A DNA stretch of 63,466 nucleotides from IMG/VR virus record IMGVR_UViG_3300030060_007512, positions 1-63,466 of that record; one strand, written 5' to 3'. This stretch comes from a virus. Taxonomy: Duplodnaviria; Caudoviricetes. This document shows, piece after piece, positions 13,649-62,971 of the stretch; positions within the stretch are counted from its first letter, which is position 1; the number at the start of each line of letters is the position of its first letter. The position numbers were made by a program, and so were the translations under genes. The notes beneath the pieces are model-generated. The model had not been told where the DNA came from. It was given only the letters and a program-made list of their open reading frames with translations, and ran no database searches.

Positions 13649-13649
13649 T

Positions 13650-14090: not shown

Positions 14091-14113
14091 TTAAATTATT
14101 TTTCTTATATTTA
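14082..14113 (+). promoter_or_regulatory. Putative host-sigma (Bacteroidota-type -33/-7) promoter
   Basis: GTTG at 14082-14085, 20-nt spacer ending TTTTCT, TATATTTA at 14106; same layout at 42080 and 61653. Confidence 0.6.
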
Positions 14114-14117
14114 TACT

Positions 14118-25211: not shown

Positions 25212-26101
25212 TGGCAACATTTCAAGTTGAACAAACATTAAGTGCATTTACAAACGGTACAGGATCTAATTCTATAAGTAAAATACCAATATCGTGTACC
25301 GACCCTAGTGGTTCATTTCATATGCTTAAACCAGGCATTCCTTATTCACATTTTGAAAATGCAGCATCAATGTCACTTGCTGTTTTAGCTTCCTCTTCGT
25401 TTGCTATAGAAGCTGATCCAGATGATATTACAAGTGTACAATTTCGAATACCAGCAAAATCAGCTGGTACTACTCATGATAGAGTTGCATTTTATATATC
25501 TGGTAGTGGCGAGATAGGTGTTGGTACTAAAGACCCTGAATCATCATTTGATATTAGAGATGTAAAACAAGATATAGATCCTAAAAATGCAAAAAATGAT
25601 AAAGAAGCTTTACTTAAATTATCAAGAGATGCTGCAGAAAAAGATATACAAGCTGAAAAATTCCGTACTGCTAGAACCATTGGTGGAGTTAGTTTTGATG
25701 GTACAGCTAATATTAATCTACCTGGTGTAAATACAGCTGGAAATCAGAATACAACAGGAAATGCAGCAACAGCAACTTCAGCATCTTATGCTGTAACGAG
25801 TAGTATGACAACAGGTAATGCTAGTACTGCTGGTGAGGCAAGGACTGTTGTTGTAAGTTCTGATGTAGGTTCTGCTGATCATCCATTAACATTTATAGAT
25901 GATACAACACCTGACGGTTCAGCTGAAGCACTTCTAGCAGCTAATACTATTACAGTTAATCCAAGTACAGGTGCACTTACTTTAGGTAACTTAACCATTT
26001 CCTTTACACAAGGTGATGGTAAAAAAACATTCGGGACAATAACATTTATTGCTAATGATGCCCGTGGAACAAGAAGAACGGCTACCATAAATTTAACTTA
26101 A
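25211..26101 (+). CDS. Tail fibre-like protein
   Basis: TARTIGGVSFDGTANINLPG, GNAATAT and IGVGT.DP fibre motifs. Confidence 0.65.
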   Translation: MATFQVEQTLSAFTNGTGSNSISKIPISCTDPSGSFHMLKPGIPYSHFENAASMSLAVLASSSFAIEADPDDITSVQFRIPAKSAGTTHDRVAFYISGSGEIGVGTKDPESSFDIRDVKQDIDPKNAKNDKEALLKLSRDAAEKDIQAEKFRTARTIGGVSFDGTANINLPGVNTAGNQNTTGNAATATSASYAVTSSMTTGNASTAGEARTVVVSSDVGSADHPLTFIDDTTPDGSAEALLAANTITVNPSTGALTLGNLTISFTQGDGKKTFGTITFIANDARGTRRTATINLT

Positions 26102-26125
26102 AATGCAATAGGATGATATTTATAT

Positions 26126-26470
26126 ATGGCGACAATCACTAAAATAAAATGGAAAGACGCTAATTTCAAGTGGAATGATGCAGAAGGAGATGCTGCATAT
26201 CTTGATTTTACCGGTCACTTAAAATTTGAGTGGGATGAAGTTTTTCTTGTTGAAGTGGTTGGTACTGGAACAGGCAGTGTTCCATCAGTAGCTGATACAT
26301 TAGGTAAATTACCTAAAGAAAAGAAAAAGAAGTACATTAGATTAATAATGGACTTCAAAGGTGTTAAAATTTACGATGAGCGTAAAGAAGTAAAAAATAT
26401 TAAAGCTTATGCTAAAGATGTTAAATTAATAGCAGAGGAGATAAAACGAAATGTACAAATTATTCACTGA
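26126..26470 (+). CDS. Hypothetical protein
   Basis: 114-aa ORF with Trp-repeat N-terminus (KWKDANFKWND). Confidence 0.5.
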   Translation: MATITKIKWKDANFKWNDAEGDAAYLDFTGHLKFEWDEVFLVEVVGTGTGSVPSVADTLGKLPKEKKKKYIRLIMDFKGVKIYDERKEVKNIKAYAKDVKLIAEEIKRNVQIIH

Positions 26471-30576: not shown

Positions 30577-30618
30577 GTAATTTATATAATTTTTAATATT
30601 AATTAGATATTTATAAGT

Positions 30619-33021
30619 ATGAATAGAGAACAAAATTTAGGAACTTGGTTAGCTGATCAAATAATATCAGAAGAGAAAACAACTATAAAAAATATAGTTG
30701 CTATCTATCCTGGAAGATTTCAGCCTATGGGAAAACATCATGCTGAAACTTATAAATGGTTGAAATCCAAATTCAAAGACGCATGGGTTGTAACATCTGA
30801 TAAAGTAGACCTTCCTAAATCTCCTTTTTCATTTAATGAAAAGAAAAAAATTATAAACTCACATGGCATACGAAACGTTGTAAAAGTTAAAAATCCTTAT
30901 CAAGCCGTTGAACTACTAAAAAAATATGATCCAAAAACAACAGCAGCTGTATTTATGGTTGGTGCTAAAGATGCACAACGTTTAGGAGGTAAATTTTTTA
31001 GACCTTGGAAAGGAAAAGCTGAAGTAGGGTATAAAGATGGCGCTTATACTTTAATTGCTCCTCACGTTAGTTTGAAAGTACCAGGTTACGGAGAAATGTC
31101 AGGTACAGCGATAAGACAAGCGTTAGGTGCTAAAGCTATAGATAGTAAATCACGAGCTCAATTATTCAAACATATTTTTGGGCATATGAAAAATTATAAA
31201 CTTATTACCAAGAAGTTAGGTGTTAATGAATCTATACTAAATTTTATAGCTTCAGGAAGAGTTGAAAAAATTATAAAAGAGAGTAGTAATGTAGCAGGCG
31301 GTCATGTAGATGACGGTCCTCAAACATGGTATCAAACACAAAGACATTATAAACAATCTACTGATAGTATTGCAAAAAAGTTTGGTATGCAAGTTATAAA
31401 TTATCTTTCAGGAGATAGTGAATTACTTAAAGAACCATCTAGATATTCAAACACAAGACAGCCATCTAACTTTCCTTCTGGTGTTGCAGGTAAAACTACT
31501 ACAGTTGCTCCAAAAGAATATCCAAACATTACAGCTTATAGAAAATGGAAAGCAGAAAAAGATAAATTAGCTAAATCATTAGGTTACGAATTATTAAATT
31601 ATTTAGGAGCTGGTGAATCTACTAAACATCCAGAACCTAATAAAGAAGTAAAAATACCAACTAACGAAGAAATTAAAATTCCTATCGAAATAGGTGATAC
31701 TGTATTAGGTGGTAAATTTAAGAATAAAAAAATAGTCGTAAAAACTATTTCTAAAAATGAAAAAGGTGATATTTTAATAAACGGCAGACCATTATTAAAA
31801 TTTAGACTAATGAATGAAGGATTAATATTAGAAGGCGGTGCTTACGGGCATATGTCTCATCCTTTTGATGATAAAAAATTAACCTTTGGAGATTTCAAAC
31901 AAATGATAAATATTGCCCTTCAAGGTAAACTAAATCTTGAATCGGCTGCAACTGAAAAAACTGATGGTCAAAATTTATTTATTACATGGGATACTGAATT
32001 AAAAGCTGCTAGAAATAATGGTGATATTAAAAGAGGTGGAATGGATGCTAAAACCTTTGCTGCTAAATGGAAAGGCAGAGGTAATATAGAAAAAGCATTT
32101 ACTTATGCATTTAGAGATTTAAGTAAAGCTATATCTAGATTATCAGAGAAACAAAAATTAAAAATATTTAATGATGGTAATAACTGGATGAATATGGAAA
32201 TAATGTATCCTCAATCTGCTAACGTTATAGTTTATGATGCACCTAAATTACAATTTCATGGTGTATTAAGATATGAAAAAGGTGCTCCTGTAGGTACAGT
32301 AAAAGATGGTGCAAGAATACTAGCCGGTATGATTAAACAAGTTGATGCTAATATTCAAAAGAGTTTTAGTATAATAGGGCCTCATGTACTTAAAGTAAAG
32401 CCAGTTCAAAACTTTGGCGAAAAAATACCTTATTTTACTAAAAAATTACAAAAGCTTATGTCATCATATAATATGAAAGATTCTAATATGTTTGCTGATT
32501 ATCATCAAGCTTGGTGGGATAATTATATTGATAAAAACTTCAAAGGTTTAGAGAATAGAATTAAAATGGGATTAGTTAAACGCTGGGCGTTTTTTGATAA
32601 ATCATTTAGATTAAATGCTAAAAATATTGAAGATCAAGAATTAAGAGAAAAAATAATTGAATTTGATAAACAAAAGCATAAAGGCACAGTACAAGATACT
32701 ATGAAACCTTTTGAATTATTATTTTTTGAATTAGGTGTTGAAGTTCTAAAAAATGTAGAAAACTTTTTAGCTGTAAATCCTGATAAAGCTGTACAGAATA
32801 TAAAGAAGCAAGTATCTAAAGCTATTAGTGATGTTCGTAAAGGTGGTGATATTAAAAAATTAAATAGAATGGGACAACAATTAAATAAATTAAATTCTAT
32901 TGGTGGATGGAAAGCAGTAATACCATCTGAAGGGCTAGTATTTATATATAAAGGTAAAACATATAAACTTACAGGTGCATTTGGTCCTATAAATCAAATT
33001 GCAGGTATGATGACGTTTTAA
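30619..33021 (+). CDS. Multidomain protein: HIGH-family nucleotidyltransferase plus KxDG ligase-like domain
   Basis: IYPGRFQPMGKHH and MSGTAIRQ (cytidylyltransferase-like); GGAYGHMSHPFD...TEKTDGQN...EGLVF...YKLTG. Confidence 0.7.
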   Translation: MNREQNLGTWLADQIISEEKTTIKNIVAIYPGRFQPMGKHHAETYKWLKSKFKDAWVVTSDKVDLPKSPFSFNEKKKIINSHGIRNVVKVKNPYQAVELLKKYDPKTTAAVFMVGAKDAQRLGGKFFRPWKGKAEVGYKDGAYTLIAPHVSLKVPGYGEMSGTAIRQALGAKAIDSKSRAQLFKHIFGHMKNYKLITKKLGVNESILNFIASGRVEKIIKESSNVAGGHVDDGPQTWYQTQRHYKQSTDSIAKKFGMQVINYLSGDSELLKEPSRYSNTRQPSNFPSGVAGKTTTVAPKEYPNITAYRKWKAEKDKLAKSLGYELLNYLGAGESTKHPEPNKEVKIPTNEEIKIPIEIGDTVLGGKFKNKKIVVKTISKNEKGDILINGRPLLKFRLMNEGLILEGGAYGHMSHPFDDKKLTFGDFKQMINIALQGKLNLESAATEKTDGQNLFITWDTELKAARNNGDIKRGGMDAKTFAAKWKGRGNIEKAFTYAFRDLSKAISRLSEKQKLKIFNDGNNWMNMEIMYPQSANVIVYDAPKLQFHGVLRYEKGAPVGTVKDGARILAGMIKQVDANIQKSFSIIGPHVLKVKPVQNFGEKIPYFTKKLQKLMSSYNMKDSNMFADYHQAWWDNYIDKNFKGLENRIKMGLVKRWAFFDKSFRLNAKNIEDQELREKIIEFDKQKHKGTVQDTMKPFELLFFELGVEVLKNVENFLAVNPDKAVQNIKKQVSKAISDVRKGGDIKKLNRMGQQLNKLNSIGGWKAVIPSEGLVFIYKGKTYKLTGAFGPINQIAGMMTF

Positions 33022-34952: not shown

Positions 34953-34978
34953 TTTAATTTCTATATATTTATATATAC

Positions 34979-36559
34979 ATGGCTAAAGATATAAAACAAA
35001 TAATACAATCAGAGTATATAAAGTGCGCAAAAGATCCTGTACACTTTATGAGGAAGTATTGTAAAATTCAACACCCAACCCGGGGTAAAATAAATTTTGA
35101 TTTATATCCATTTCAAGAAAAAGCTCTTACGCAGTTCAAAGATCATGATTATAATATTATTCTTAAATCACGTCAATTAGGTATATCTACTCTTACAGCG
35201 GGATACACTCTATGGGGTATGATATTTAATGCTGATTTTAACGCATTAGTTATTGCAATTAAACAAGATACAGCAAAAAATCTTGTAACTAAAATACGTG
35301 TAATGCATGAAAATTTACCATCGTGGTTAAAAGGTCAAGTATTAGAAGATAATAAATTATCATTACGATTAAAAAATGGCTCTCAAGTTAAAGCTGTTTC
35401 TTCTTCTCCTGATGCAGGTAGATCAGAAGCACTATCTTTACTAGTTATTGATGAGGCAGCATTTATTGATGGTATTGATGAAATATGGACTTCAGCACAA
35501 CAAACTCTTGCTACCGGTGGTAGATGTATTGCGTTATCAACACCTAATGGAGTAGGTAATTGGTTTCATAAAGAATGGGTAAAAGCTGAAAACGGCGAAA
35601 ATAAATTCAGTACTATTAGATTACACTGGACAGTGCATCCTGAACGTAATCAAACATGGAGAGATGAACAAGATGTAATTTTAGGTACTGATCAAGCAGC
35701 TCAAGAATGTGATTGTGATTTTATTTCATCTGGTAATTCAGTTATACCCGGTCCTTTATTAGAATGGTATAAAACTAATATGTGTCAAGATCCTGTTGAA
35801 AAACGAGGTCATGATAATTCATACTGGGTATGGGAATATCCTAATTATACAAAAGATTATGTTGTTGTAGCAGACGTTGCAAGAGGTGATGGTGCAGACT
35901 ACTCTACCTTTCATGTTATTGATATTGAGTCAGTTACTCAAGTAGCTGAATATAAAGGTCAAATAGGTGTTAAAGAGTTTGGTAATATGTTAGTAAATGT
36001 TGCTACTGAATATAATGAAGCATTATTAGTAGTTGAGAACGCTAATATAGGATGGGCAGCTTTACAACCTGCAATAGATAGAGGCTATAGAAATTTATAT
36101 TATACATATAAACACGATGGTGTTGTTGATCCTGAAGTTCAGCTTAAAAAAGGCTATGATATGAAAGATAAATCACAAATGGTACCAGGTTTTACAACAT
36201 CTGCTAGGACTAGACCACTTTTGATATCAAAGCTAGATATTTATTTTAGAGAAAAAGCGTGTGTTGTGCGTTCGACTAGACTTATTGACGAACTGTTTGT
36301 TTTCGTTTGGAGAGGTTCTAGACCGGAAGCACAATCTGGGTATAACGATGATTTAGTAATGGCATTCTCTATTGCTATGTATATTCGTGATACAGCTTTG
36401 AAATTAAGAAACGAAGGATTAGAACTTAATAAAAGAGCTATAGGATTGATGGGAACAAATACATCATACAATGGAGTTTACACGCAAAAAACTGATCCTG
36501 ACGATTCATGGAATATGAATTTAGGAAACAACAAAGAAGATTTAACATGGTTATTATAA
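34979..36559 (+). CDS. terL: Terminase large subunit (T4 gp17-like)
   Basis: LYPFQ, KSRQLGIST Walker A, LVIDEAAF Walker B, STPNG, ADVARG..DYS, DDLVMA. Confidence 0.95.
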   Translation: MAKDIKQIIQSEYIKCAKDPVHFMRKYCKIQHPTRGKINFDLYPFQEKALTQFKDHDYNIILKSRQLGISTLTAGYTLWGMIFNADFNALVIAIKQDTAKNLVTKIRVMHENLPSWLKGQVLEDNKLSLRLKNGSQVKAVSSSPDAGRSEALSLLVIDEAAFIDGIDEIWTSAQQTLATGGRCIALSTPNGVGNWFHKEWVKAENGENKFSTIRLHWTVHPERNQTWRDEQDVILGTDQAAQECDCDFISSGNSVIPGPLLEWYKTNMCQDPVEKRGHDNSYWVWEYPNYTKDYVVVADVARGDGADYSTFHVIDIESVTQVAEYKGQIGVKEFGNMLVNVATEYNEALLVVENANIGWAALQPAIDRGYRNLYYTYKHDGVVDPEVQLKKGYDMKDKSQMVPGFTTSARTRPLLISKLDIYFREKACVVRSTRLIDELFVFVWRGSRPEAQSGYNDDLVMAFSIAMYIRDTALKLRNEGLELNKRAIGLMGTNTSYNGVYTQKTDPDDSWNMNLGNNKEDLTWLL

Positions 36560-38380: not shown

Positions 38381-39247
38381 ATGGCAAACATTAAACATAA
38401 TAAAATAAAAAATGTAGGTGTGTTATTCGAGTTACTTACTCGACAAATAACATCTGATACTATTAATGGTATTGGAAATTCACCAGCTATTTTTATTGTA
38501 AAAGAATTTTTTAACAAAAATTCGTATTTGAGTAAGGAATTAAATTTATATAAAGCGTTACAAGTTCAAAAATATAAAAATGAAGCTAGAGCTGAAAAAT
38601 TTATTGATGTTGTAGTTGCTGAACATAATAAACTATCAAGTGCTAAACTTAATAGAGAAAAATATAACCTTATAAAAGAAATAAAGTCAAAATACAATTT
38701 AGAAGATTTTTTCAAATCTCATGTTGCTAATTATAAATTAAATGCATCTATTTATAAAATACTTGAAAGTAAAAACAATAAAAGATTTTCTAATCCTATG
38801 AATGTAATGAAAAGTAGAGTTTTTCTTACTGAGCATATTCTTGAAAAATTTGGAAGTACTAAAAATACAAAAGAAACTATTATTAAAGAGTATTCTAAAC
38901 AAGATCAGGATTTAAGATTATTATCTTATAAAATTTTACTTGAGAAATTTAATAAAAAGTATGGTAAATTAAACGTTAAGCAGAAAAATTTACTAAAAGA
39001 ATATATTAATAATATATCTAATCTTTCTTCATTAAAAAAATATATTATTAAAGAAGTAAACACTGTAACTAAAGCTTTAAGTTTACTTACACCTAAAGTA
39101 AGTGATAAGGTTGTAAAGATAAAGCTTAAAGAAGTATCAGATCAATTAAAGCTTATAAAAAAAGAAAATAAAATAAGAGATAAGCATTTAGTCTCTGTAC
39201 TTCGTTCTTATAATTTAATTAAGGAGTTAAATAATGTCGTTAAATAA
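38381..39247 (+). CDS. Hypothetical helical head-module protein
   Basis: 288 aa between portal and protease; IKHNKIKNVGVLFELL N-terminus. Confidence 0.55.
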   Translation: MANIKHNKIKNVGVLFELLTRQITSDTINGIGNSPAIFIVKEFFNKNSYLSKELNLYKALQVQKYKNEARAEKFIDVVVAEHNKLSSAKLNREKYNLIKEIKSKYNLEDFFKSHVANYKLNASIYKILESKNNKRFSNPMNVMKSRVFLTEHILEKFGSTKNTKETIIKEYSKQDQDLRLLSYKILLEKFNKKYGKLNVKQKNLLKEYINNISNLSSLKKYIIKEVNTVTKALSLLTPKVSDKVVKIKLKEVSDQLKLIKKENKIRDKHLVSVLRSYNLIKELNNVVK

Positions 39248-39674
39248 ATTATTAGAAAAAAAATTAAAAGAAGTTGAAGAAGAACTAGAAGAAATATCTA
39301 CAACAGGCGCAGGTGAAGCATATAATACTAAATATGCATTTGGTGATTTAGATGATGATGATGTTGAAAAATCAGGGTATAAAAAAGTAAAAGAATCTAA
39401 ATTTAGAAAAATGGCATCTGCTTCTTTTCTTAATGAAGTTTCATATAATGAATATAAAAAGAATAATGATTTTTCAGCTAAACAAAAAGTTAATAAATCT
39501 ATAAAAGAAGTTAGTAGTAAACTTTTTAGAATTGAACGTATTATTAATCAGAATATAAAATTAAAAACAGAAGAAGGTATTGATAATAAACAGTACTGGA
39601 AATCTACTAGAAAAAATTTATATAAGATATCAGAACGTATGATGCGTATTGGTGAAAAATTAAGGAAATTCTAA
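39234..39674 (+). CDS. Hypothetical head-module protein
   Basis: AAGGAG SD; LEE, VKE and LNE motifs. Confidence 0.55.
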   Translation: MSLNKLLEKKLKEVEEELEEISTTGAGEAYNTKYAFGDLDDDDVEKSGYKKVKESKFRKMASASFLNEVSYNEYKKNNDFSAKQKVNKSIKEVSSKLFRIERIINQNIKLKTEEGIDNKQYWKSTRKNLYKISERMMRIGEKLRKF

Positions 39675-39800
39675 ATGAGCAAAGATATTATTAATGAAAA
39701 TATTACTATCGAAGAAATGCGAAAAATTATTCGCACCGAACTTGCTCGTATATTTTTCGATTTATACCGAAAACGTAGCACGTGGGAGAGATTAGGATGA
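39675..39800 (+). CDS. Unlisted 41-aa small ORF (MSKDIINENITIEEMRKIIRTELARIFFDLYRKRSTWERLG)
   Basis: Fills the gap exactly: TAA-ATG junction upstream, ATGA overlap with the protease downstream. Confidence 0.65.
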   Translation: MSKDIINENITIEEMRKIIRTELARIFFDLYRKRSTWERLG

Positions 39801-40426
39801 GTAAAACATTACTTATAGATTATACACCATTTGATATATCACCACAAATGATTATTGAATCTGAACAACAGAATAATGGTAGAGTTATTGTGTCAGGTGT
39901 GTTGCAACGTGCTGGTGCGAAAAATCAAAACGGAAGAGTATACCCAAAAGATATTCTAATGAGAGAAGTAAACGAATATAAAAAAGTTCAAATATCTGAA
40001 AGAAGAGCTTTAGGTGAATTAGATCACCCTGATACTTCTGTAGTTAATTTAGCTAACGCTTCTCATAATATATTAGATGTATGGTGGAACGGAGATGATG
40101 TAATGGGTAAAGTTGAAGTTCTTTCAACACCATCAGGTAATATACTTAAAGAGCTATTAAGATCAGGTATTAAACTTGGTATATCATCTAGAGGACTTGG
40201 TTCAGTAAAACAAATTAGTGAAGATACTGTTGCAGTACAAAATGATTTTGAATTAGTATGCTGGGATTTCGTTTCAAATCCATCAACACATGGAGCTTTC
40301 ATGAAGCCTATGAATGAATCAGTTGGCAGTAAAATTAAAAAAGATAAATTTTTCAAAGTAAATAATATTATTAGTGAAATGCTTTGCGACTTAACTTGCA
40401 AATGTGCATTACCTAATCAGGAGTAG
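39797..40426 (+). CDS. Prohead protease (T4 gp21-like)
   Basis: NQNGRVYP, ALGELDHP, GISSRGLGS, DFVSNPS; GGGAG SD favours ATG 39797. Confidence 0.93.
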   Translation: MSKTLLIDYTPFDISPQMIIESEQQNNGRVIVSGVLQRAGAKNQNGRVYPKDILMREVNEYKKVQISERRALGELDHPDTSVVNLANASHNILDVWWNGDDVMGKVEVLSTPSGNILKELLRSGIKLGISSRGLGSVKQISEDTVAVQNDFELVCWDFVSNPSTHGAFMKPMNESVGSKIKKDKFFKVNNIISEMLCDLTCKCALPNQE

Positions 40427-42079: not shown

Positions 42080-42111
42080 GTTGGTTAATTGTAGTTTTTT
42101 TCTTATATTAA
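42080..42111 (+). promoter_or_regulatory. Putative Bacteroidota-type promoter of the bS21 gene
   Basis: GTTG at 42080-42083, 20-nt spacer ending TTTTCT, TATATTAA at 42104. Confidence 0.6.
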
Positions 42112-42145
42112 GGTAATTAATAATCGTTTAACTAAAATTATAAAA

Positions 42146-42505
42146 ATGCGAAAAAATTATGAAGGAGGCCAAGGCCCTCCTAAAAAAGCCTTTCGAAGAA
42201 AAAGATGGTCTAGGCAAGACTTTTATGTACCAGGTAATCCGAGAGGAGTTAAAGTACCTGACAATTCACCAGCAGCTTTAGAAAAAAGTTTACGTTATCT
42301 TAAACGTCAAATGAAAGATGCTGATATCGTTGGTAAACTTAGAGCTAATCAAGAGTATACTAAACCTTCAGCTAAACGTAGAAAACAGATGCAAGATGCT
42401 GTTAGAAAGCAACAGTTGAGAGATAAAATTAGTAAACAGTATTGGGATAATTTTACATGGATAGTCCCACCATCTAAAAATACTGGACCTGAATTACCAT
42501 TTTAA
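42146..42505 (+). CDS. rpsU: Phage-encoded ribosomal protein bS21 with N- and C-terminal extensions
   Basis: VKV......LEKSLRYLKRQM...IVGKLR..QEYTKPSAKRRK...AVRK matches the bS21 core; lies in the head module. Confidence 0.8.
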   Translation: MRKNYEGGQGPPKKAFRRKRWSRQDFYVPGNPRGVKVPDNSPAALEKSLRYLKRQMKDADIVGKLRANQEYTKPSAKRRKQMQDAVRKQQLRDKISKQYWDNFTWIVPPSKNTGPELPF

Positions 42506-42511
42506 TAAAAG

Positions 42512-42538
42512 AAACCCGAAAATTTTTCGGGTTTTTTT
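42512..42538 (+). terminator. Rho-independent terminator after bS21
   Basis: aaacccgaaaa/ttttcgggttt inverted repeat plus T tract. Confidence 0.85.
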
Positions 42539-42580
42539 ATATATTTTATATTTACGTATATATTTATATGTGTACAAAAT

Positions 42581-42667
42581 ATACTATCATTTATATAGTA
42601 TTAGATACAAAATTAATATCTATTAAGATTCCTAATAATCTTATTTCCACATTATATTTATTGGAGA
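42581..42667 (+). promoter_or_regulatory. Structured 5' leader (four tandem hairpins) of the scaffold-capsid operon
   Basis: atactat/atagtat, tagata/tatcta, taagatt/aatctta, tttcca/tggaga (the last covers the SD). Confidence 0.45.
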
Positions 42668-42673
42668 CAAATT

Positions 42674-43672
42674 ATGTCAAAAGACTTGTTAAAAGAAGCA
42701 ATTGCTGATGCAAAAGCTGTTAGAGAAACTGCTATCGCTAATGCTAAACTTGCTCTAGAAGAAGCTTTCACACCTAAACTTCAATCTATGTTATCTGCAA
42801 AATTGCAAGAAGATGATATGGAAGATGAAGAAGAAGACGTTGATGTTGCAGAAATGGAACATGGCGAGGAAGAAGCTGAAGAAGGTATGCATGCCGACGA
42901 TGAAACAGAAGAAGGAATGCATGGCGACGATGAAGCTGAAGAAGGTATGAGAGAAGAAGACGAAGAGGAAGAAGAAGGTATGAGAGAAGAGGACGAAGAG
43001 GAAGCTGAAGAGGGAATGCGTGAAGAAGATGAAGAGGAAGAGGGTGACCTTGACCTTGAATCTATCATTAGAGAACTTGAAGGCGAAGATGAAGAAGAAG
43101 CTGAAGAAGGAATGCGTGAGCAATCTGACTCAAGCGATCTCGGAAAAGGCGATAACAAAATGGATCAAGCGTCTGGTAAAGACCAAGACGATCCAGGTAA
43201 AGGTAAGTTAAAAGAAGAAGAAGAAGGTGATGATGAAGAAATCGATTTAGACGAAGTAATCAGATCACTAACTGAAGAAGATGAAGACGAAGAAGGTATG
43301 GAAGAAGAGGAAGATAAAGATGCTGAACTAGAAGAAGCATATAATACTATCAGATCTCTTAAATCTACACTTCAAGAAGTTAATCTTCTAAATGCTAAAT
43401 TATTATTCTCAAACAAATTGTTTAAGGGTAATAACTTAAGTGAATCTCAAAAGATGAAAGTTATCGAAACATTCGATAGAGCATCTAATTTGAGAGAAGT
43501 TAAGTTAGTATATTCTACTTTAGCTGAATCATTTACCGGTAAGTCAGTTTCAAAGAAAGGCTTAACAGAAGGATTCGCTTCTAGAAAATCAAACTCAACA
43601 GCTCCGAAAGGACAAATTGTTGAATCAAATGGCATGGCAAATCGTATGAAGCGATTAGCTGGCTTATTGTAA
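42674..43672 (+). CDS. Prohead core/scaffold protein (gp22-like)
   Basis: Highly acidic, coiled-coil ends, immediately upstream of the major capsid gene; ends RMKRLAGLL. Confidence 0.8.
   Translation: MSKDLLKEAIADAKAVRETAIANAKLALEEAFTPKLQSMLSAKLQEDDMEDEEEDVDVAEMEHGEEEAEEGMHADDETEEGMHGDDEAEEGMREEDEEEEEGMREEDEEEAEEGMREEDEEEEGDLDLESIIRELEGEDEEEAEEGMREQSDSSDLGKGDNKMDQASGKDQDDPGKGKLKEEEEGDDEEIDLDEVIRSLTEEDEDEEGMEEEEDKDAELEEAYNTIRSLKSTLQEVNLLNAKLLFSNKLFKGNNLSESQKMKVIETFDRASNLREVKLVYSTLAESFTGKSVSKKGLTEGFASRKSNSTAPKGQIVESNGMANRMKRLAGLL
42866..43120 (+). repeat. Degenerate 30-36 bp coding tandem repeats (EEGM[HR]...E/D)
   Basis: gaagaaggtatg/gaaggaatg units; six EEGM copies in this span. Confidence 0.8.
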
Positions 43673-43709
43673 AATTATTAACGTATTTAAGAAATAGGAG
43701 AGACAAAAA

Positions 43710-46103: not shown

Positions 46104-47255
46104 ATGGCAACAACAACTGTATATGACGGAACAGCTGGTGACATTAGTGGTAGTACTCCTTTTGGTATATACGATGAGCATTCTGATTTCCAAACTGATG
46201 GACCTAAAGTAGCTGATTGGTGTGCTAGAAGGATAGGGTATCCTATTGTCGATATTGAGCTCCAAGATCAAAATTTCTTTGCATGCTTTGAAGAAGCTGT
46301 AACGGAATATTCATCTCAAGTAAATAGATTTAATATAAAAGAAAATTTATTAACACTGAGAGGTAATTCAACTGCATCTAACTATACCCATAAACACTTT
46401 AATCCAGGGTTAGATGATATTGTAGGGATATCTAAAGCATATGGTACTGAAGCTGGCGTGGGAGGTGATGTAAAACTATATACAGGCTCTGTATCAATGT
46501 CAAAAAATCAAGGTGTATACGATTTGACTGATTCTAATTTAGTAACTTTAGAAAATGGTACTGTAGGTTCAGATTCAATAGAAGTTAGAAGAGTATTTTA
46601 TGAAGCTACACCTGCTATGACACGATTTTTTGATCCACATATAGGTTCAGGACTAGGCTCACAGCAAATGTTAAATACATTTGGTTGGGGTAACTATTCA
46701 CCAGCAATAAATTATTTATTAATGCCAATGTATGATGATTTATTACGTATACAAGCTATAGAATTTAACGATCTAATGAGAAAATCAGCTTACTCATTTC
46801 ACATACAAGGAAACAGAATAAGAGTATTTCCTTTACCTGATAGTTCTTATAAATTGTATTTTCATTATATAAAGGTAAGTGATAGAAGAACTATATCATT
46901 TGATGGTGGACTAGTTTCTGATTTTTCTAACGCACAATATAATAATATGACCTATAATAATATTAACGATCCAGGTAAACAGTGGATTAAAAAATACACT
47001 TTAGCATTAGTTAAAGAACTATTAGGTTCTATTAGAGGTAAATATGGTTCAATGCCTATACCTAACGGCGATGTATCCTTAGACGGTGATACTCTACGTT
47101 CTGAAGGTGCTGCTGAAAGAGATGCTCTAATATCAGAATTGAGAGAAGATTTAGAAGCAGCTTCTAAACGTCAATTAATGGAAAAGCAAAATGATATTGC
47201 TAACTTCCACCAAGAAACTATGAATAAAATGCCATACGGCATATATATTGGATAA
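46104..47255 (+). CDS. Neck protein (T4 gp13-like)
   Basis: RRIGYPIVDIEL, WIKKYTLALVKE..G..RGKY, LDGD. Confidence 0.8.
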   Translation: MATTTVYDGTAGDISGSTPFGIYDEHSDFQTDGPKVADWCARRIGYPIVDIELQDQNFFACFEEAVTEYSSQVNRFNIKENLLTLRGNSTASNYTHKHFNPGLDDIVGISKAYGTEAGVGGDVKLYTGSVSMSKNQGVYDLTDSNLVTLENGTVGSDSIEVRRVFYEATPAMTRFFDPHIGSGLGSQQMLNTFGWGNYSPAINYLLMPMYDDLLRIQAIEFNDLMRKSAYSFHIQGNRIRVFPLPDSSYKLYFHYIKVSDRRTISFDGGLVSDFSNAQYNNMTYNNINDPGKQWIKKYTLALVKELLGSIRGKYGSMPIPNGDVSLDGDTLRSEGAAERDALISELREDLEAASKRQLMEKQNDIANFHQETMNKMPYGIYIG

Positions 47256-56414: not shown

Positions 56415-59400
56415 ATGTCAGGGTTCAGAGGAATATTTCTTGATGCTATGCACCCGTTAATAGTAAGACGGTTAGATGCTGATACTAATGCTTTAACTTT
56501 TAGAGGCCCTAATCAAGCAATGACTGATCTTGATCAAACAGCTGCTTTTAGATACTTTCAAGAGAGAACACCGTGGATAAGAGTTTGTCCATTTGCGATA
56601 CCACAAACAACTTTTTTAGCTAATCCTAATGTATCAATATATAATATTCCTGAAGTCCCTGATTGGAGAGATTGGATAATCTGGGGTGGTAAAGGTATAA
56701 ATCACGGCGGTGGGTATCAAACGGTTGAAGGTGGAGAAGCTGGAACTGATTCAAGCGTTTCAGGTGACGCAGGTGGTAGGCAATGGGTAGCAGGTAGACC
56801 TTATGGTAGTGCAGCTGATTGGAAAGCAAATAATTTTAATGAAGATATTGGTGTTCGTCATAGTGCCGGTAATGTTGCAGGTATTGGTAATTCCGGACAT
56901 TCTTTATATAGATCAACAGCACAAGGTTGGAGAGGGCAAGATGTACTTGGGATGAAATCAAGTCCAGTGCCCGGTATTTTAGCATTAAATGTAAGTAATA
57001 AAGGTGACTTAGGAACTATTAGAAGAGCTTCTTTCGATATAAAAGTTTTTAATACTGATGATCTAGAAGCTATAGAAATGATGTATATGATTCCTGGTAT
57101 ATCTGTACTTGTAGAATGGGGATGGTTTCATCCTACAAAATATATTGATCCTATAAATGTTGAACTAATAACAGATGGTAGTACTTTAAGTAATACTAAT
57201 CTTATTAATACTGAAATATTAAGAAAGTCATATGGTATTACTAAAGGACTCCCAGGCGATGCAAGACCTTTATATAATTTAGAAGAGCAAGCAAACGCGG
57301 TAATAACTGACCCAACTGGACCTGATGCAGGTATTTACGATGGACTATTAGGTGTAGTAACCAAATTTAATTGGACTAATGATGGTGCTGGTGGATATGA
57401 TTGTAGAGTTGATGTTGTATCACCTGGCTCATTAGCGACCGGTATTCCTACTGTAAGTTTTGATTGTGGTGGTGAAATGGAGGTTGAAGGTAAAAAAATC
57501 CAAGTTTCAGATGTAAGAACTATAGTTTCTTTAATTAAAAAAGAAAGTAGAGCTATTGAAGCTGCTCCTGCTGAAGATAATGCTTCTAAACAATCAAAGA
57601 ATAATATAGGTAAAATTGAACTTGGTGATCCAGCTGGTGAACAAGATGTAGCAATAGATGGTGGTGGTGAATCAGGGGTAACAGTTAAAGTAAATCCTAA
57701 AAAATTAAATACCAGTGCTTATAATATTAAAATTACTAAAGATCAAAACGGTGATTTACAATTTGAAGAATCAACAGGTAGTTCTTCTAAAGAAGAATAT
57801 TTTATAGGAGAGTTCAAAGGAGGAAAACGTCAAAAAACAACATTAATTAAAGGTGATAGAACTTGGTGGAATAAATGTGTTGCATATTGTATGTATGCTG
57901 ATGATATAAGGAAAGCTGGAATTAATGTAACAGACGCAAGAAACGGTATAGTAGATATGTCAAAAATTACTAGACCTAATGGTGGAAAACCTGATTTAGA
58001 TTATTTAGAAGATAGATTCCAAAATAGTAAGGTAAGTGATTTTTTATGGTCTGGTGGTGCAAACGATAATGGTATGGCTAATATGGAGTTGAAATGGGGA
58101 GACCAACTTCGTGATGGTGATTTTTTTATAAAAAGAGATCCTAAACCAAGTAAAAAAGGTTCTACTTTAGGAAAACATTATACTATTTGGATAATAACAT
58201 TTAGTGGTATAGTTGATCATACAACATCAGGTAACAACCTTTACTTAAATTATAGAAATTGGTTTAATCCATGGGGCGTTAAAAAATTAATACCTAAAAT
58301 GGAAGATCCTGGACAGGAAGATATACCTTTAGGTCAACGTACTGTTAAAGCTTCTTCAGAAGATATAAAAGGGTATATGTCTAAAGATGCTGCAGCTAAA
58401 AAATATGGATGGAAAACTACAGATGATGGTAAAACATATGTTGATGAAACCGGTCAAAAGGTTGATTGGGGAGAATATGGACCGTATGCAGTTGAACAAC
58501 AGACAGGTATAACAGTATATACTAAAGATGATAATGGTAATTATAAAGAGGTTGCATCTTTTGAAGGTGATAATGCAAAATCAGATGAACAGTTAGTAGC
58601 TGATCTAGTTGCTAAAGCTAAAGGTATTGATAATCAAAAAGCAGATGATAGAGAAAATGAATTAAATGAAAATATGAAAGTTGATGCTGAGATAACAAAT
58701 ACAGCTCAAAATTTAGGAATGCTTTCTTGGGTTAACAGTGATGATTTCAAATCAGGTAAAAAACCTGTAAGGTTAAGTGGAAGTGGTAAATTTCATAAAG
58801 TAATTTATGCAAACAATCAACCTGTACATGCACCTAAAATTGGTGGTCTTGATAGTAAAGTAAGAGAAAATGTAACCGAAGAATTAGGTTATGATTTTGT
58901 AATGGGTAAGACAGCTAACTTATTACCTGTAGGTTCTGTAGTTTATGGTAATACATATGTAACGTGGAGGTTTATAGAAGATTATATTATAAACGAATTA
59001 TATATGCCTAAAGCAGTTAAGCCTGGACAAAACGAAGAAAATGATAATAACACAACTCTTGATACTTTATTTAGATCTTGTACAAGAATGACTGATAATG
59101 AAAAAGCGACTTTAGATCCTGATGTTGCTAAATTAGTTGGTGTCGAGTTTGATGATGACGGATTACTTACACCTCAATCAAGGAATAGAGAAGTTTGGAA
59201 GCCTGTACATATAGTCAACCACTCAGGATTAAGATCGCTAGACCCAACTGTTTGTTATATTCCAGGTCAAGAAACTTTAGATGCTATGATTATTACTGCA
59301 GAAGGTTCAGGTGGTGCAAGTGGAGGTGAACATTTATTAGATGCGGGCCTATCAGGAGCTTCTAAATATCTAAAAGGAGAAGATTGTTTTAATAAATTTA

Positions 59401-61028
59401 TAGGAATTGGTCCTAACGGATTACCTAATGTTCCAACTAATAGTGGCATTTTAAGAAACATTATGATAAATGCAGATTTAGTATTAGAATCTGCTGAAAA
59501 ATCTGAAAATGTTAGAAAATTTTGTTTAACGATTCTTGATGCAGTAAATACAGCATGTGGTAAGCCATGGAGTTTCAAAATGCTTACTAATTCAGCTTTA
59601 GGTCAAATAAGTATAATTGATGAAAATTACACACCAACTGAATTTGTTGATGATTATTCAAGTGGGTGGACAGGAATGCAGGAAGTTAACGGATATAAAA
59701 TTTATAAATTTGCTGCAGCTGGTACTAATAATGTTTTAAGAGATGTAAAGATACAATCTAAAATACCTAATGAATTAGCTACAATGGCATATTACGGTAC
59801 TATGGGTACAGGTAATGAAAAAGGTTCATCGATACAGATGTTTCAAATGTATGGTGCAGGTATATCTGATAGATTAAAATCTATCTCATCTATTAAAATA
59901 TTAGGTAGTACAACCGGATCTGCAGAAGATAGACAAGCTGCTGAAGAAAAATTATTAAATTCATATAGAAACTTATTAGGTGATACTAGAAGGATTGAAT
60001 TAAATGGAACTGACGAAACTGAACCTATCGAAGAAGGTGTAAGAATAGCTGAACAATATGTAAGAAAATATATTCATGGTGATACTCAAACTGTCGGTTC
60101 ATACAGGCCACCTATTCCTATTGACGTATCATTAACTTTACATGGAATATCAGGAATATATATGGGTAATGCGATTCATATAAAGACTACTTCTGAAGGA
60201 GGTATATTACCTGATAGATATCGAGATACTGTAGCTTTACAAATTACATCTGTAGATCATAGTATTACGCCAGAAGATTGGACAACAAGTATAGGTACAT
60301 TAATGAGACCGATAAATGATTCAGGTAATAAGCCTGAAGCAAAAATTATAGAGCAACCACCTACAGAATATAAAAAGAAAACTACATTCAAATCTGGTGG
60401 TGCAAATGGTCCTAAAGATAATAAAAGTTTAGATGCTCTTCATCCTGTTGTAGCAGCAGCTTGGTTAAGAGTTGAAGCTAAACTAAAAGCTGATGGATGG
60501 CAACCTCAAATTGTAACTTGTTTTAGATCTCTTAAATCTCAAGCTAAAAAAGCTTCATCTGGAAAATCACAAGTTACATTTGGTAATCACTGTGCAATTA
60601 ATGAGAAAGGTGAGCCTAATTCACAAGCTATGGATATTATAGATAAGCGTTATTCATATGGTAATAATAAAAAGACTATAGCTGAAAAAGGTAAAAAGTT
60701 TGTAAAAGATCAAGCATTTAAGTTTTGGGCAGAAGCAGCAAGATATGGTAAAATGGAAGGATTTTCATGGGGTGGAGATTTTTCTTGGAAAGGAAATAAA
60801 TATAAGAAAAATGGTGATTATGATCCAGATGCTTCAAAAGTAAATACTAAGAAAAAATATTCACCTACTCATATTGGTTGGGACCCAGGACACCTTGAAA
60901 TGATTGGTAAGACTGTTAATGGTGTGAAAATGCCATCGATGAGAGAAAGTGCAAAAACAGCGACTAAATTTTACGGTAGAAAAATACATACTAAAAATAA
61001 AGAAAATCCAAATATTAATTTAGTATAA
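56415..61028 (+). CDS. Large baseplate hub-like protein with C-terminal M15 peptidoglycan peptidase
   Basis: PGISVLVEWG, FNW, LHGISGI, VDHSI...WTT hub-like motifs; LHP...FRS...Q...H...A.D...WGGDF...DPGHLE M15 motifs. Confidence 0.7.
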   Translation: MSGFRGIFLDAMHPLIVRRLDADTNALTFRGPNQAMTDLDQTAAFRYFQERTPWIRVCPFAIPQTTFLANPNVSIYNIPEVPDWRDWIIWGGKGINHGGGYQTVEGGEAGTDSSVSGDAGGRQWVAGRPYGSAADWKANNFNEDIGVRHSAGNVAGIGNSGHSLYRSTAQGWRGQDVLGMKSSPVPGILALNVSNKGDLGTIRRASFDIKVFNTDDLEAIEMMYMIPGISVLVEWGWFHPTKYIDPINVELITDGSTLSNTNLINTEILRKSYGITKGLPGDARPLYNLEEQANAVITDPTGPDAGIYDGLLGVVTKFNWTNDGAGGYDCRVDVVSPGSLATGIPTVSFDCGGEMEVEGKKIQVSDVRTIVSLIKKESRAIEAAPAEDNASKQSKNNIGKIELGDPAGEQDVAIDGGGESGVTVKVNPKKLNTSAYNIKITKDQNGDLQFEESTGSSSKEEYFIGEFKGGKRQKTTLIKGDRTWWNKCVAYCMYADDIRKAGINVTDARNGIVDMSKITRPNGGKPDLDYLEDRFQNSKVSDFLWSGGANDNGMANMELKWGDQLRDGDFFIKRDPKPSKKGSTLGKHYTIWIITFSGIVDHTTSGNNLYLNYRNWFNPWGVKKLIPKMEDPGQEDIPLGQRTVKASSEDIKGYMSKDAAAKKYGWKTTDDGKTYVDETGQKVDWGEYGPYAVEQQTGITVYTKDDNGNYKEVASFEGDNAKSDEQLVADLVAKAKGIDNQKADDRENELNENMKVDAEITNTAQNLGMLSWVNSDDFKSGKKPVRLSGSGKFHKVIYANNQPVHAPKIGGLDSKVRENVTEELGYDFVMGKTANLLPVGSVVYGNTYVTWRFIEDYIINELYMPKAVKPGQNEENDNNTTLDTLFRSCTRMTDNEKATLDPDVAKLVGVEFDDDGLLTPQSRNREVWKPVHIVNHSGLRSLDPTVCYIPGQETLDAMIITAEGSGGASGGEHLLDAGLSGASKYLKGEDCFNKFIGIGPNGLPNVPTNSGILRNIMINADLVLESAEKSENVRKFCLTILDAVNTACGKPWSFKMLTNSALGQISIIDENYTPTEFVDDYSSGWTGMQEVNGYKIYKFAAAGTNNVLRDVKIQSKIPNELATMAYYGTMGTGNEKGSSIQMFQMYGAGISDRLKSISSIKILGSTTGSAEDRQAAEEKLLNSYRNLLGDTRRIELNGTDETEPIEEGVRIAEQYVRKYIHGDTQTVGSYRPPIPIDVSLTLHGISGIYMGNAIHIKTTSEGGILPDRYRDTVALQITSVDHSITPEDWTTSIGTLMRPINDSGNKPEAKIIEQPPTEYKKKTTFKSGGANGPKDNKSLDALHPVVAAAWLRVEAKLKADGWQPQIVTCFRSLKSQAKKASSGKSQVTFGNHCAINEKGEPNSQAMDIIDKRYSYGNNKKTIAEKGKKFVKDQAFKFWAEAARYGKMEGFSWGGDFSWKGNKYKKNGDYDPDASKVNTKKKYSPTHIGWDPGHLEMIGKTVNGVKMPSMRESAKTATKFYGRKIHTKNKENPNINLV

Positions 61029-61038
61029 GGAGATAAAA

Positions 61039-61653
61039 ATGGCTGAAAAAGATAACAGTAAAGAATATAAACATGAATCGATACACGGAGATCCTTCTGC
61101 TGAACAATCTATGACTGGTCTACAATTCTTTACTGAAGGCGATGAGTCTACTGATTTAGGTCATAGAGAAGAGTATGAAAATAGAAAAGGTCTCGCAACT
61201 ACAAATATATTACCACCTCCTATAAATGGACCTATCCCTATAAGTGATTTATTAGTTGAAAGTAGAAAGCGTTCAATTATATTACGATATACTGGTGAGA
61301 TTAGAGAAGTTGCACCTGATGTAGCTGCAGAATTTGAAGAAGAATTAGCTAAAGGAATTTATTTTTTAATTAATTTTTACTGGCCACAACAACAAAAAAA
61401 TAGAAAAACTGTTGAAATGAGAAAGCGTGAAGTAATTGATATAGCAGTTGCTCAAGCGCCTGTAGAATTAAGAAAAAATGTTGCTGAATGGTTTTCTTAT
61501 CAAGTTTCTCAAGGTCCAGAGTCAAATGAACCGCAATCAACAAGAAGATTGCGTAAAGATCCTGATTTATATAAATCACCTTTGACAGCACCGGTAGTTA
61601 ATGATACGGATAATAGGAGTCTAGAGAGTGATTCTGATTATTCTAGAGGTTAG
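61039..61653 (+). CDS. Hypothetical protein
   Basis: 204 aa; AAGGAG SD. Confidence 0.5.
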   Translation: MAEKDNSKEYKHESIHGDPSAEQSMTGLQFFTEGDESTDLGHREEYENRKGLATTNILPPPINGPIPISDLLVESRKRSIILRYTGEIREVAPDVAAEFEEELAKGIYFLINFYWPQQQKNRKTVEMRKREVIDIAVAQAPVELRKNVAEWFSYQVSQGPESNEPQSTRRLRKDPDLYKSPLTAPVVNDTDNRSLESDSDYSRG

Positions 61654-61684
61654 TTGTTTATTTGAATAGTTTTTCTTATATTAG
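61653..61684 (+). promoter_or_regulatory. Putative Bacteroidota-type promoter of the polymerase gene
   Basis: GTTG at 61653-61656, 20-nt spacer ending TTTTCT, TATATTAG at 61677. Confidence 0.6.
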
Positions 61685-61705: not shown

Positions 61706-62971
61706 ATGATTGTAGATAATGATAAAATACTATCTCAACTAAAAGTTGAGTATAATAATTCTGAATCAATAGTAATACCTATATACAGTGATATTCGTAA
61801 ACATAGAGTAATTAACAAATTATCACTTTTGTATATTTATATTATTAATTCGAAAAAGACTTACTGTATTCTTGTAAATCATTCTGATAAAATCTACAAT
61901 ATCGATAGCTTAAGCTTTATTAATAATGATAGTATTAAATATACTTATAGTACAGGTATAAAAAATTCTATAAATATTGATGCGTTATACTATCTTACAA
62001 ATTTATGTAATATTAATAAAGAAGAGTTATATACTGAATCACATAAGTTTTTTTATAATAAGTATTGGAAGCTTGATAATATAAATGATGTTATACCAGT
62101 CTATAAACATTTAGAGTATTGCAATAAAATAAAAGAAAAAACATTACAAGTAATTAAAAATAAAAATTTACCTGGGTTTACTGAATATAATAAAAAAGTG
62201 ATACCTGCTTTTAGAAGTATTGAAAATAATGGACTTGCAACTTATAACGGCGTTGAATTTACTAAATATAATTTATGGACAACTACAGGTAGACCAAGTA
62301 ATTCATTTAATGGAATAAACTATGCAGCGTTAAATAAAGAAGATGGTACAAGAGAAAAATATATTAGTAGATTCGATAAAGGTAAATTAGTAGAGTTTGA
62401 TTTCGATGCATATCATTTAAGATTAATTGCAAAAATGATTAACTATGATTTGCCTAAAACTTCTATGCATACTTATTTAGGTAAATATTATTTTGGAAAA
62501 GATCTTATAACTAAAGATGAGTATAATGAATCTAAAGCAGTATCGTTCAAAATACTATATGGTGGTGTTCCTAAAGAGTTTGAAAATATTCCATTTTTTA
62601 GTAAAGTAAAGAGCTATATTTTTGAACTTTGGGATATTTATATTAGTAAAGGTTATGTAGAAACACCTATATTCAAAAGAAAGGTTCATGCAGAGAATCT
62701 CAAAGATAGAGATATTAAACCTCAAACATTATTTAATTATCTAATTCAATCTATGGAAACTGAACAGAATGTTTTAATAATTGAGTCGATACAGAATATG
62801 TTGAAAGATTATCAAAGTAAGCTTGTATTATATACTTATGATGCGCTATTATTTGATATTCACCCTAATGAAATATCTTTATTAAATAATATAAAAGATA
62901 CAATGATTTACCCAGTAAAATGTAAAACGGGACATAATTATAATAAAATGAATCTTTATACCTTTGAGTAG
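61706..62971 (+). CDS. Short family A DNA polymerase-like protein
   Basis: TTTGRPS, motif A EFDFDAYHLRLIA, motif B SKAVSFKILYG, NYLIQS, motif C YTYDALLFD. Confidence 0.8.
   Translation: MIVDNDKILSQLKVEYNNSESIVIPIYSDIRKHRVINKLSLLYIYIINSKKTYCILVNHSDKIYNIDSLSFINNDSIKYTYSTGIKNSINIDALYYLTNLCNINKEELYTESHKFFYNKYWKLDNINDVIPVYKHLEYCNKIKEKTLQVIKNKNLPGFTEYNKKVIPAFRSIENNGLATYNGVEFTKYNLWTTTGRPSNSFNGINYAALNKEDGTREKYISRFDKGKLVEFDFDAYHLRLIAKMINYDLPKTSMHTYLGKYYFGKDLITKDEYNESKAVSFKILYGGVPKEFENIPFFSKVKSYIFELWDIYISKGYVETPIFKRKVHAENLKDRDIKPQTLFNYLIQSMETEQNVLIIESIQNMLKDYQSKLVLYTYDALLFDIHPNEISLLNNIKDTMIYPVKCKTGHNYNKMNLYTFE

Follow-up and report, generated by a model that had tools for sequence, protein, structure and literature searches.

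The locus examined here raises the question of why a phage would carry a gene for ribosomal protein bS21 that lacks a Shine-Dalgarno sequence (SD) in the midst of head-assembly genes of which many are led by one. It lies in a marine T4-like phage, the virus record IMGVR_UViG_3300030060_007512 of IMG/VR, analysed as a whole (63,466 bases, G+C 32%; the window), whose open reading frames (ORFs) are almost all on the + strand and which is a piece of a larger genome, since both its ends are open. We found that the presence and type of bS21 go with SD use among relatives of this phage. Our tentative reading, drawn from sequence and given slightly less than an even chance, is that this bS21 and the SD-dependent translation of phage messages are coupled: the protein would be made from an SD-independent leader under a replication-type promoter, would enter the 30S subunit and would keep the anti-SD of 16S rRNA available, or make it so. 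To our knowledge, bS21 is the commonest ribosomal protein encoded by viruses, and we know of no function established for the phage versions.

Two classes of promoter-like boxes are distinguished below, class B, shared by the genes for bS21, primase and DNA polymerase, and class A, a late-type box of the form [GT]ATATTTAT[AT]. The bS21 unit comprises the following features:

42080-42109, + strand: GTTG-N20-TATATT element of class B (GTTG at 42080-42083, TATATT at 42104-42109), 5' of bS21
42097-42109, + strand: 13-mer TTTTTCTTATATT, the 3' part of the bS21 class B element
42126-42137, + strand: leader element GTTTAACTAAAA, in the SD-less 5' untranslated region of bS21
42146-42505, + strand: extended phage bS21 of 119 amino acids (aa), with the core at about residues 35-90, flanked by extensions of about 34 aa (N-terminal) and about 29 aa (C-terminal)
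42163-42181, + strand: AGGAGG...CCTCCT hairpin (an SD and anti-SD look-alike) in the first codons of bS21
42508-42538, + strand: intrinsic-terminator-like hairpin plus T-run (14 pairs, loop of 3) that ends the bS21 unit

The product had been described in an initial annotation of this DNA as bS21-like, and two curated profiles bear this out: ORF 42146-42505 scored 36.9 bits against PF01165 (Ribosomal_S21; E 2.9e-9, cut-off 27) and 38 bits against TIGR00030 (E 1.1e-9, cut-off 28.95) and is, by these scores, a bS21 homologue. With 119 aa it has about twice the normal length and falls outside the usual bS21 size of about 55-75 aa. The elongation is shared by 33 clusters of 100-138 aa found by protein search, all with the same extensions, and a scan of viral contigs yielded 55 loci encoding this extended family, in which F16, K19, R23, F26, G30, P32 and a C-terminal W/F-rich stretch are conserved outside the core. 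The family alignment had no relative in 185,579 species genomes (one genome per species), which therefore offer no clue to the host, and tblastn of the window bS21 against 50,697 phage records (E 1e-3) gave no match; the extended form appears to be a phage-only family. An AlphaFold model of the protein (mean predicted local distance difference test score, pLDDT, 77.6) has helices at residues 42-58, 61-68 and 74-102.

In Bacteroidia, the signature residue Tyr54 of bS21 stacks on A1534 at the point where the 16S 3' tail turns into the pocket formed by bS6, bS18 and bS21 (PMC7797042). In an ungapped phmmer alignment with the F. johnsoniae protein (7jil_z, residues 8-62 against query residues 41-95), Tyr54 falls on Arg87 and Ile55 on Lys88 of the window bS21, which lacks the anti-SD-sequestering signature Tyr54/Ile55 of Bacteroidia; the top match in the PDB, 9i5v_9, also has a tyrosine at the Tyr54 position. 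In the extended family, conservation of Arg87 is 90% or more, with a tyrosine instead in two clusters. An arginine at this position is compatible with a bS21 unable to retain the anti-SD, in line with the supposition of the initial annotation that a phage bS21 frees it. A C-terminal part less basic than that of other phyla is a further feature of the Bacteroidia type; the stretch RRKQMQDAVRKQQLRDK of the window protein appears fairly basic.

The hairpin in the first codons of bS21 brings a perfect AGGAGG, 17 nt into the coding sequence, into pairing with a CCTCCT 7 nt downstream (local fold -12.9 kcal/mol). It is limited to the window and its closest relatives (L005 and L008) and is not family-wide, and a role as an autoregulatory sensor was set aside on account of this restriction.

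A gene was scored as SD-led when GGAG or GAGG stood at -17 to -5 from its start. By this definition, 28 of the 54 curated genes of the window, or 30 of 52 when genes were called automatically, are SD-led, against 2.8% of other ATGs (n=1438). The more than 20 SD-led genes initially reported are borne out by these counts, and all 12 starts that had been named carry GGAG. The exceptions that had been pointed out also hold, as no SD precedes bS21 or primase, and the polymerase has just a weak AAGG. In the 55 loci of the extended family, SDs occur on 24-80% of genes (background 3.5-6.2%) and GGAG or GAGG precedes the bS21 start in none of the relatives' start contexts listed; such contexts amid SD-rich neighbours make bS21 the systematically SD-less gene of SD-rich genomes. 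Its place is the same in 53 of the 55 loci, on the same strand between homologues of the window genes at 40431 and 41129 (w40431, w41129) and the scaffold and capsid genes, the exceptions being L018 and L026.

The region upstream of bS21 is conserved well beyond what would be expected from the divergence of the protein (to 42% identity). Most distinct relatives have the element GTTTAACTAAAA or a near variant 5' of bS21, even at protein identities as low as 42%, and the order of features in relatives is a hairpin with T-run, a TTATATT box, a leader of 30-37 nt with GTTTAACTAAAA and the ATG. The upstream hairpin with T-run is strong (-10 kcal/mol or lower) in 16 of 21 representative relatives. 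At the other end of the unit, the terminator that had been initially attributed to bS21 is present in the window as a 14-pair stem followed by a T-run.

We then compared bS21 and SD use across relatives, which were retrieved by the capsid protein because selection on bS21 was to be avoided. This gave 34 contigs from metagenome-assembled genomes (MAGs) and, out of at least 594 viral contigs, the 80 best; bS21 was detected by running an iterated profile against their stop-to-stop frames. A viral locus was taken as evaluable if it had 8 or more genes and no less than 3.5 kb 5' of the capsid gene, which left 44 of the 80; the other 36 were dropped. Sorted by the residue at the Tyr54 position, the evaluable loci were distributed as follows:

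Non-aromatic bS21: 23 loci, 171/319 genes SD-led (54%), median fraction 0.54
Aromatic bS21: 5 loci, 21/81 genes SD-led (26%), median fraction 0.22
No bS21: 15 loci, 23/223 genes SD-led (10%), median fraction 0.10
bS21 with unreadable Tyr54 position: 1 locus, 4/16 genes SD-led, median fraction 0.25

The SD fraction of loci with non-aromatic bS21 differed from that of loci without bS21 (Mann-Whitney p 3.4e-7) and from that of loci with the aromatic type (p 0.0018). Among the MAG contigs, five that are SD-rich (L061, L066, L067, L068 and L069) encode short bS21 proteins of the non-aromatic type, in each case 5' of the capsid gene; seven SD-free ones (L064, L071, L078, L084, L087, L088 and L092) have no bS21, and another SD-free contig, L060, has a bS21 with Phe at the Tyr54 position. 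Presence and type of bS21 go with SD use among these relatives, and in sister clades the corresponding place is taken by bS21 genes of ordinary length.

Among cultured phages, the capsid protein points to Flavobacterium phage vB_FspM_immuto (Immutovirus, MW353176; hereafter immuto) as the nearest relative; identity is 49.6% in the capsid protein, 57% in the terminase and 48% in the portal. Unlike the window, immuto is devoid of bS21 across its 160,366 bases and essentially devoid of SDs, which were found on 0/20 genes of its structural block and 3/80 of its early region. The second by capsid protein (47.5% identity), 'Microcystis' phage Mel-JY01, encodes a 75-aa bS21 at the same place as the window and has SDs on 7/20 genes. 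In a capsid tree, the SD-free contigs lacking bS21 form essentially one group that includes immuto.

The initial annotation had ascribed to bS21 a promoter-like GTTG-N20-TATATT element shared with primase and polymerase. All three copies are present, and a fourth, at 13895, had been missed. The boxes outside the bS21 unit to which the text refers, together with an example of the SD-led class, are:

13895-13924, + strand: fourth copy of GTTG-N20-TATATT, within a segE-like homing endonuclease ORF
14082-14111, + strand: class B element 5' of primase, with TATATT 6 nt ahead of the GTG start at 14118 (leaderless-type)
42559-42662, + strand: two class A boxes before the SD-led acidic scaffold-like gene (start 42674)
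43696-43700, + strand: AGGAG, the SD of the major capsid gene (start 43710)
61653-61682, + strand: class B element 5' of the gene for the N-terminal part of DNA polymerase A (start 61706)

GTTG-N20-TATATT occurs four times on the + strand of the window and not on the - strand (0.19 in shuffles), and TTTTTCTTATATT three times on the + strand, always intergenic and before primase, bS21 and polymerase (0.0 in shuffles). Class A boxes number 21 on the + strand and 4 on the - strand (2.5 in shuffles) and mostly lie just 5' of structural genes, having the properties of a T4-type late box, distinct, strand-specific, intergenic and placed before structural genes. The bS21 gene sits in the head module yet bears the box of replication genes, its box being of class B and not of class A. 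Both classes were also found in immuto and in two relatives of the window, G011 and G012, and from their position, strand bias and conservation we infer that they are promoters. A scan of the window for the sigma-70 consensus, with 79 sites against 105 expected, was uninformative. Bacteroidetes promoters have a -33/-7 spacing; TTG-N20-TATATT cannot name the host, as it fits this spacing and the sigma-70 arrangement -35/N17/-10 alike.

In the early region of immuto (50 kb), the class B box, with TTG exactly 20 bases before TATATT, occurs nine times on the + strand and not on the - strand, typically behind a hairpin plus T-run. At 22018-22124, 25403-25469, 25866-25952 and 46445-46505 of immuto (L003), it stands right behind a conserved GGCTTG...hairpin and T-run, and this order of terminator and promoter is the one flanking bS21 in most marine relatives. 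Several boxes of the window lie 1-12 nt from a start codon, namely at 26115-26128 (ORF 26126), 30606-30621 (ORF 30619), 34964-34981 (large terminase, 34979) and 14099-14120 (primase, 14118), and the primase ATG of G011 likewise lies 6 nt past its box. Boxes that abut start codons suggest leaderless or near-leaderless messages.

A partition of promoter classes by SD, in which early genes of the bS21 class would lack SDs and late genes carry them, had been proposed initially. As the window has few early genes, the comparison was made in G011 (contig of L008, read as reverse complement), a close relative of 104 kb, rated 61% complete, with 84-97% protein identity to the window in the shared block. 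Its non-structural part follows the gene order of immuto (split PolA, SSB, UvsX, exonuclease, DnaB, RNR, Que cluster, GroES, GroEL). A bias of SDs to the structural block was found (25/38 genes SD-led, against 29/85 elsewhere; Fisher p 0.0015; background 5.3%), but genes outside it are SD-led too and the two box classes differ weakly. The first genes after boxes, pooled over the window, G011 and G012, with those whose ATG lies at most 12 nt from the box counted as abutting (leaderless-type), were:

After class A: 28 SD-led, 16 abutting the box, 9 neither, 53 in total
After class B: 3 SD-led, 7 abutting the box, 4 neither, 14 in total

SD against not SD by box class (28/53 versus 3/14) gave a Fisher p of 0.068.

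In the mechanism that we propose, the elongated bS21 would be transcribed as its own unit from the early- or middle-type box that would also drive primase and DNA polymerase, and would be translated without an SD by way of the conserved A-rich leader; with such SD-independent synthesis, the circuit could start on unmodified ribosomes. The protein would enter host 30S subunits, replacing the host bS21 or adding to it, and would there keep the 16S anti-SD available or make it so. SD-led phage messages, those of two thirds of the structural genes, would then be initiated efficiently. If the host resembles Flavobacterium, the step would consist in the release of a normally hidden anti-SD through displacement of the Tyr54-bearing host protein, and F. 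johnsoniae ribosomes without bS21 do read SDs (PMC9976891). If the host already uses SDs, the step taken by the phage would be the supply of bS21, which classic work on E. coli, as cited in PMC9723584 and PMC6375957, found necessary for pairing with the SD and for the binding of mRNA. A more specific version for a Flavobacteriia-like host, which we regard as rather unlikely, is that an Arg87 bS21 made early displaces the host protein and frees the 16S 3' tail, giving private SD-reading ribosomes that would favour SD-led phage messages over SD-less host messages, with immuto-like sisters never having acquired bS21, or having lost it, and staying SD-free. The reprogramming of ribosomes that the initial annotation had read into this locus is plausible on the same sequence evidence, if on the unlikely side, and its interpretation is overall partly supported.

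Several observations weigh against a coupling of bS21 and SD use. The SD rate of the non-structural part of G011 is six times background, with clear SDs on SSB, UvsX, RNR, FolE, QueE, GroES and GroEL, so that SDs are not limited to late genes and the early/late partition is a bias and not a switch. With SDs on many early and middle genes, SD-dependent initiation must already be available when these are read, and either the host supplies it or bS21 acts very early. The association across relatives is phylogenetically narrow: on a capsid tree of 43 rows, the bS21 state needs at least four changes, and an independent-pairs test found two pairs on well-supported branches, both concordant, a number too small for significance (sign test p 0.5). 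With so few pairs, the association, which rests on about two to four independent changes, may reflect one or two old events. There are also discordant loci: L011 has Tyr at the Tyr54 position and still 6/13 SD-led genes, L141 and L143, of the aromatic type, reach 33% and 40% SD-led genes, and L151 and L165, lacking bS21 within 7 kb, are nevertheless 27-31% SD-led. In the window itself, the hairpin 5' of the bS21 box is degenerate (-0.9 kcal/mol), making late read-through into bS21 possible, and the best Foldseek match of the model, P. aeruginosa bS21 (7unr_u), is weak (E 0.69). Finally, if the host were simply one that uses SDs, this would account for those of the phage with no part for bS21.

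Whether the host belongs to the Bacteroidota is, in our estimate, a nearly balanced matter that leans slightly to the negative. Synteny, accessory genes and both promoter boxes are common to the window lineage and to immuto, which was isolated on Flavobacterium; 14 of the 34 MAG-binned relatives carry Bacteroidota labels, the next phylum being Pseudomonadota with five, as do four of the nine rows of the SD-rich clade with short bS21. L081, from a MAG labelled Flavobacterium sp., has a bS21 of the extended type and a capsid N terminus 65% identical to that of the window. On the other side, binning in a MAG does not equal infection, and the labels of further bins include Pelagibacter, Rhodobacterales and an archaeon. 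Over the full-length capsid protein no MAG relative exceeds 54% identity, the recorded host of Mel-JY01 is a cyanobacterium, and SD-rich genes are the usual sign of an SD-using host. Assignment of the host by affinity of the bS21 core was tried and rejected: the core matched 160 of 301 genomes (E 0.01 or lower; best 40% identity, 34.8 bits) from the phylum of the Flavobacteriales-labelled MAG G002, the one phylum in which genomes were searched, and the PDB scores of Bacteroidia-like, gamma-proteobacterial and other bS21 proteins lie within a few bits of each other. Neither a Pfam scan of 44 window ORFs, which found no host-specific domains, nor a search of the window for tRNAs, which found none, added a clue.

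The SDs may instead reflect ordinary matching to an SD-using marine host. In this reading bS21, like that of Pelagibacter phage HTVC008M, would be an auxiliary gene or one for ribosome takeover in general, free of any special link to SDs, and its conserved SD-less leader would serve regulation of its own gene, for example autoregulation. An SD frequency of about 55-70% is typical of phages of SD-using hosts, and the SD-led early genes, the cyanobacterial record of Mel-JY01 (the nearest SD-using relative with a named host), the bins of SD-rich relatives among Pelagibacter, Rhodobacterales and an archaeon, and the shallowness of the bS21-SD association all agree with it. Basic residues at the Tyr54 position are, moreover, the norm outside Bacteroidia (PDB alignments; PMC7797042). 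Against it stand the whole-genome synteny and both boxes held in common with a proven Flavobacterium phage and the predominance of Bacteroidota bin labels, in the SD-rich short-bS21 clade included; it also leaves unexplained why bS21 alone is SD-less across the 55 loci and why 15 of the 15 evaluable loci without bS21 are SD-poor. We consider this explanation the main rival, if well below an even chance.

If bS21 had a late-stage role, like that suggested for the bS21 myophages of fresh water (PMC9723584), it would be transcribed together with the head genes by read-through from upstream late promoters and would act late or be packaged in the virion, favouring phage transcripts generally. The location within the terminase-portal-protease-capsid block, as in those phages, the lack of a strong terminator upstream of bS21 in the window and the late boxes upstream at 38340 agree with such a role. 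It is nonetheless improbable, given that a strong hairpin with T-run insulates bS21 from upstream transcription in 16 of the 21 representative relatives, that its box is of the replication-gene and not the late type, and that the window protein lacks the aromatic residue described for all 61 phage bS21 of PMC9723584. We judge it very improbable that the protein has left the ribosome to become a bS21-derived basic nucleic-acid-binding protein of the head, for example an internal head protein. Its doubled length with conserved extensions, its location among head-assembly genes and a fold search lacking a significant ribosomal match could be read in this way, but the bS21 core is conserved and scores above curated cut-offs, short bS21 proteins of ordinary length occupy the same position in sister clades, and the promoter box is again not of the late type. 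A metatranscriptome run (X16, contigs) covered scaffold, capsid, sheath and tube genes, and bS21 was in none of the pieces listed; it is uninformative on bS21 expression. We infer early synthesis of bS21 from its box, and the coupling of bS21 to SD-dependent translation remains our preferred reading.

Phage-encoded bS21, its position in the head module and the idea of its substitution into host ribosomes are already in print (PMC9723584, PMC6375957). The freshwater bS21 myophages (Chen et al. 2022, PMC9723584), predicted to infect Bacteroidetes, resemble the window in being T4-like myoviruses with bS21 inside a block of terminase, portal, prohead protease and capsid genes, and their bS21 was likewise proposed to substitute into host ribosomes. 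They differ in that their bS21 gene lies on the reverse strand, whereas that of the window is on the strand of the structural genes and encodes 119 aa with conserved N- and C-terminal extensions. The aromatic residue that they have at the Tyr54 position led to the conclusion that the anti-SD is still blocked, whereas the window has an arginine there. Again unlike them, the window bS21 has its box in common with replication rather than late genes, and SD use was analysed here for the lineage, an analysis that we did not find in the text of PMC9723584. Pelagibacter phage HTVC008M (Mizuno et al. 2019, PMC6375957) is also a marine T4-like myovirus encoding bS21, and its protein was shown to enter E. 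coli ribosomes; that protein has 67 aa, is host-like and is 54% identical to Pelagibacter bS21, whereas the extended form of the window had no cellular counterpart in the species-genome scan. In F. johnsoniae, whose bS21 belongs to the same family, whether SD-led messages are read depends on the state of bS21 on the 30S subunit, in a scheme of anti-SD sequestration and rpsU autoregulation, rpsU carrying a strong SD that is read by ribosomes lacking bS21 (PMC7797042, PMC9976891). The phage arrangement is the opposite, with an SD-less bS21 gene and other genes SD-led; no extended SD of the rpsU type was found on bS21 in the window or in the relatives' start contexts listed, and the phage protein has Arg/Lys where Tyr54/Ile55 stand in the host protein.

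We found no description of the extended Arg87 family, of its conserved SD-less leader with a replication-type box or of a lineage-wide link between bS21 type and SD use in the literature searched, which included PMC9723584, PMC9976891, PMC7797042 and PMC12619734; members of the family may be among the supplementary alignments of PMC9723584. The link ties one form of bS21 to the translation start of a whole phage lineage in a specific and checkable way, and both bS21 and SDs are missing from a sister lineage whose Flavobacterium host is proven. If the host belongs to the Bacteroidota, the virus would rewire mRNA selection by swapping one ribosomal protein and would offer a natural tool to switch on SD recognition in Bacteroidia; if the host uses SDs, there would still be a large bS21 family of phages alone, in which both the extensions and the SD-less leader are conserved and merit testing.

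The remaining genes of the window are those of a T4-like myovirus according to PHROG matches, which include baseplate wedge, tail sheath, tail tube, large terminase, portal, prohead protease and major capsid among virion and packaging genes, as well as PhoH; for replication and repair there are primase, an SbcD-SbcC fusion nuclease and the N-terminal portion of a DNA polymerase of family A. The polymerase is split into two distant genes, seen at 61706-62971 of the window and at 39113-40381 and 58880-61108 of G011 and comparable to genes 1 and 71 of immuto. The nuclease is a single ORF of 1051 aa (15026-18181) joining an SbcD-like phosphoesterase and an SbcC-like ATPase, the equivalents of T4 gp47 and gp46. 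A SegE-like GIY-YIG homing endonuclease (13638-14090; PF19835, E 3.3e-31) is inserted immediately 5' of primase. Between bS21 and the capsid gene lies a strongly acidic repeat protein of 332 aa (42674-43672; EEGMREEDEEE-type repeats) with no family match, which is probably a scaffold or prohead core protein. A sugar epimerase of G011 was followed as a possible host clue, and its nearest protein-atlas clusters were all viral. At about 71,300-83,400, G011 has about 15 genes of sugar-nucleotide and glycosyltransferase type with an SD on one only, in a genome otherwise one third to two thirds SD-led, and this block may be a recent acquisition.

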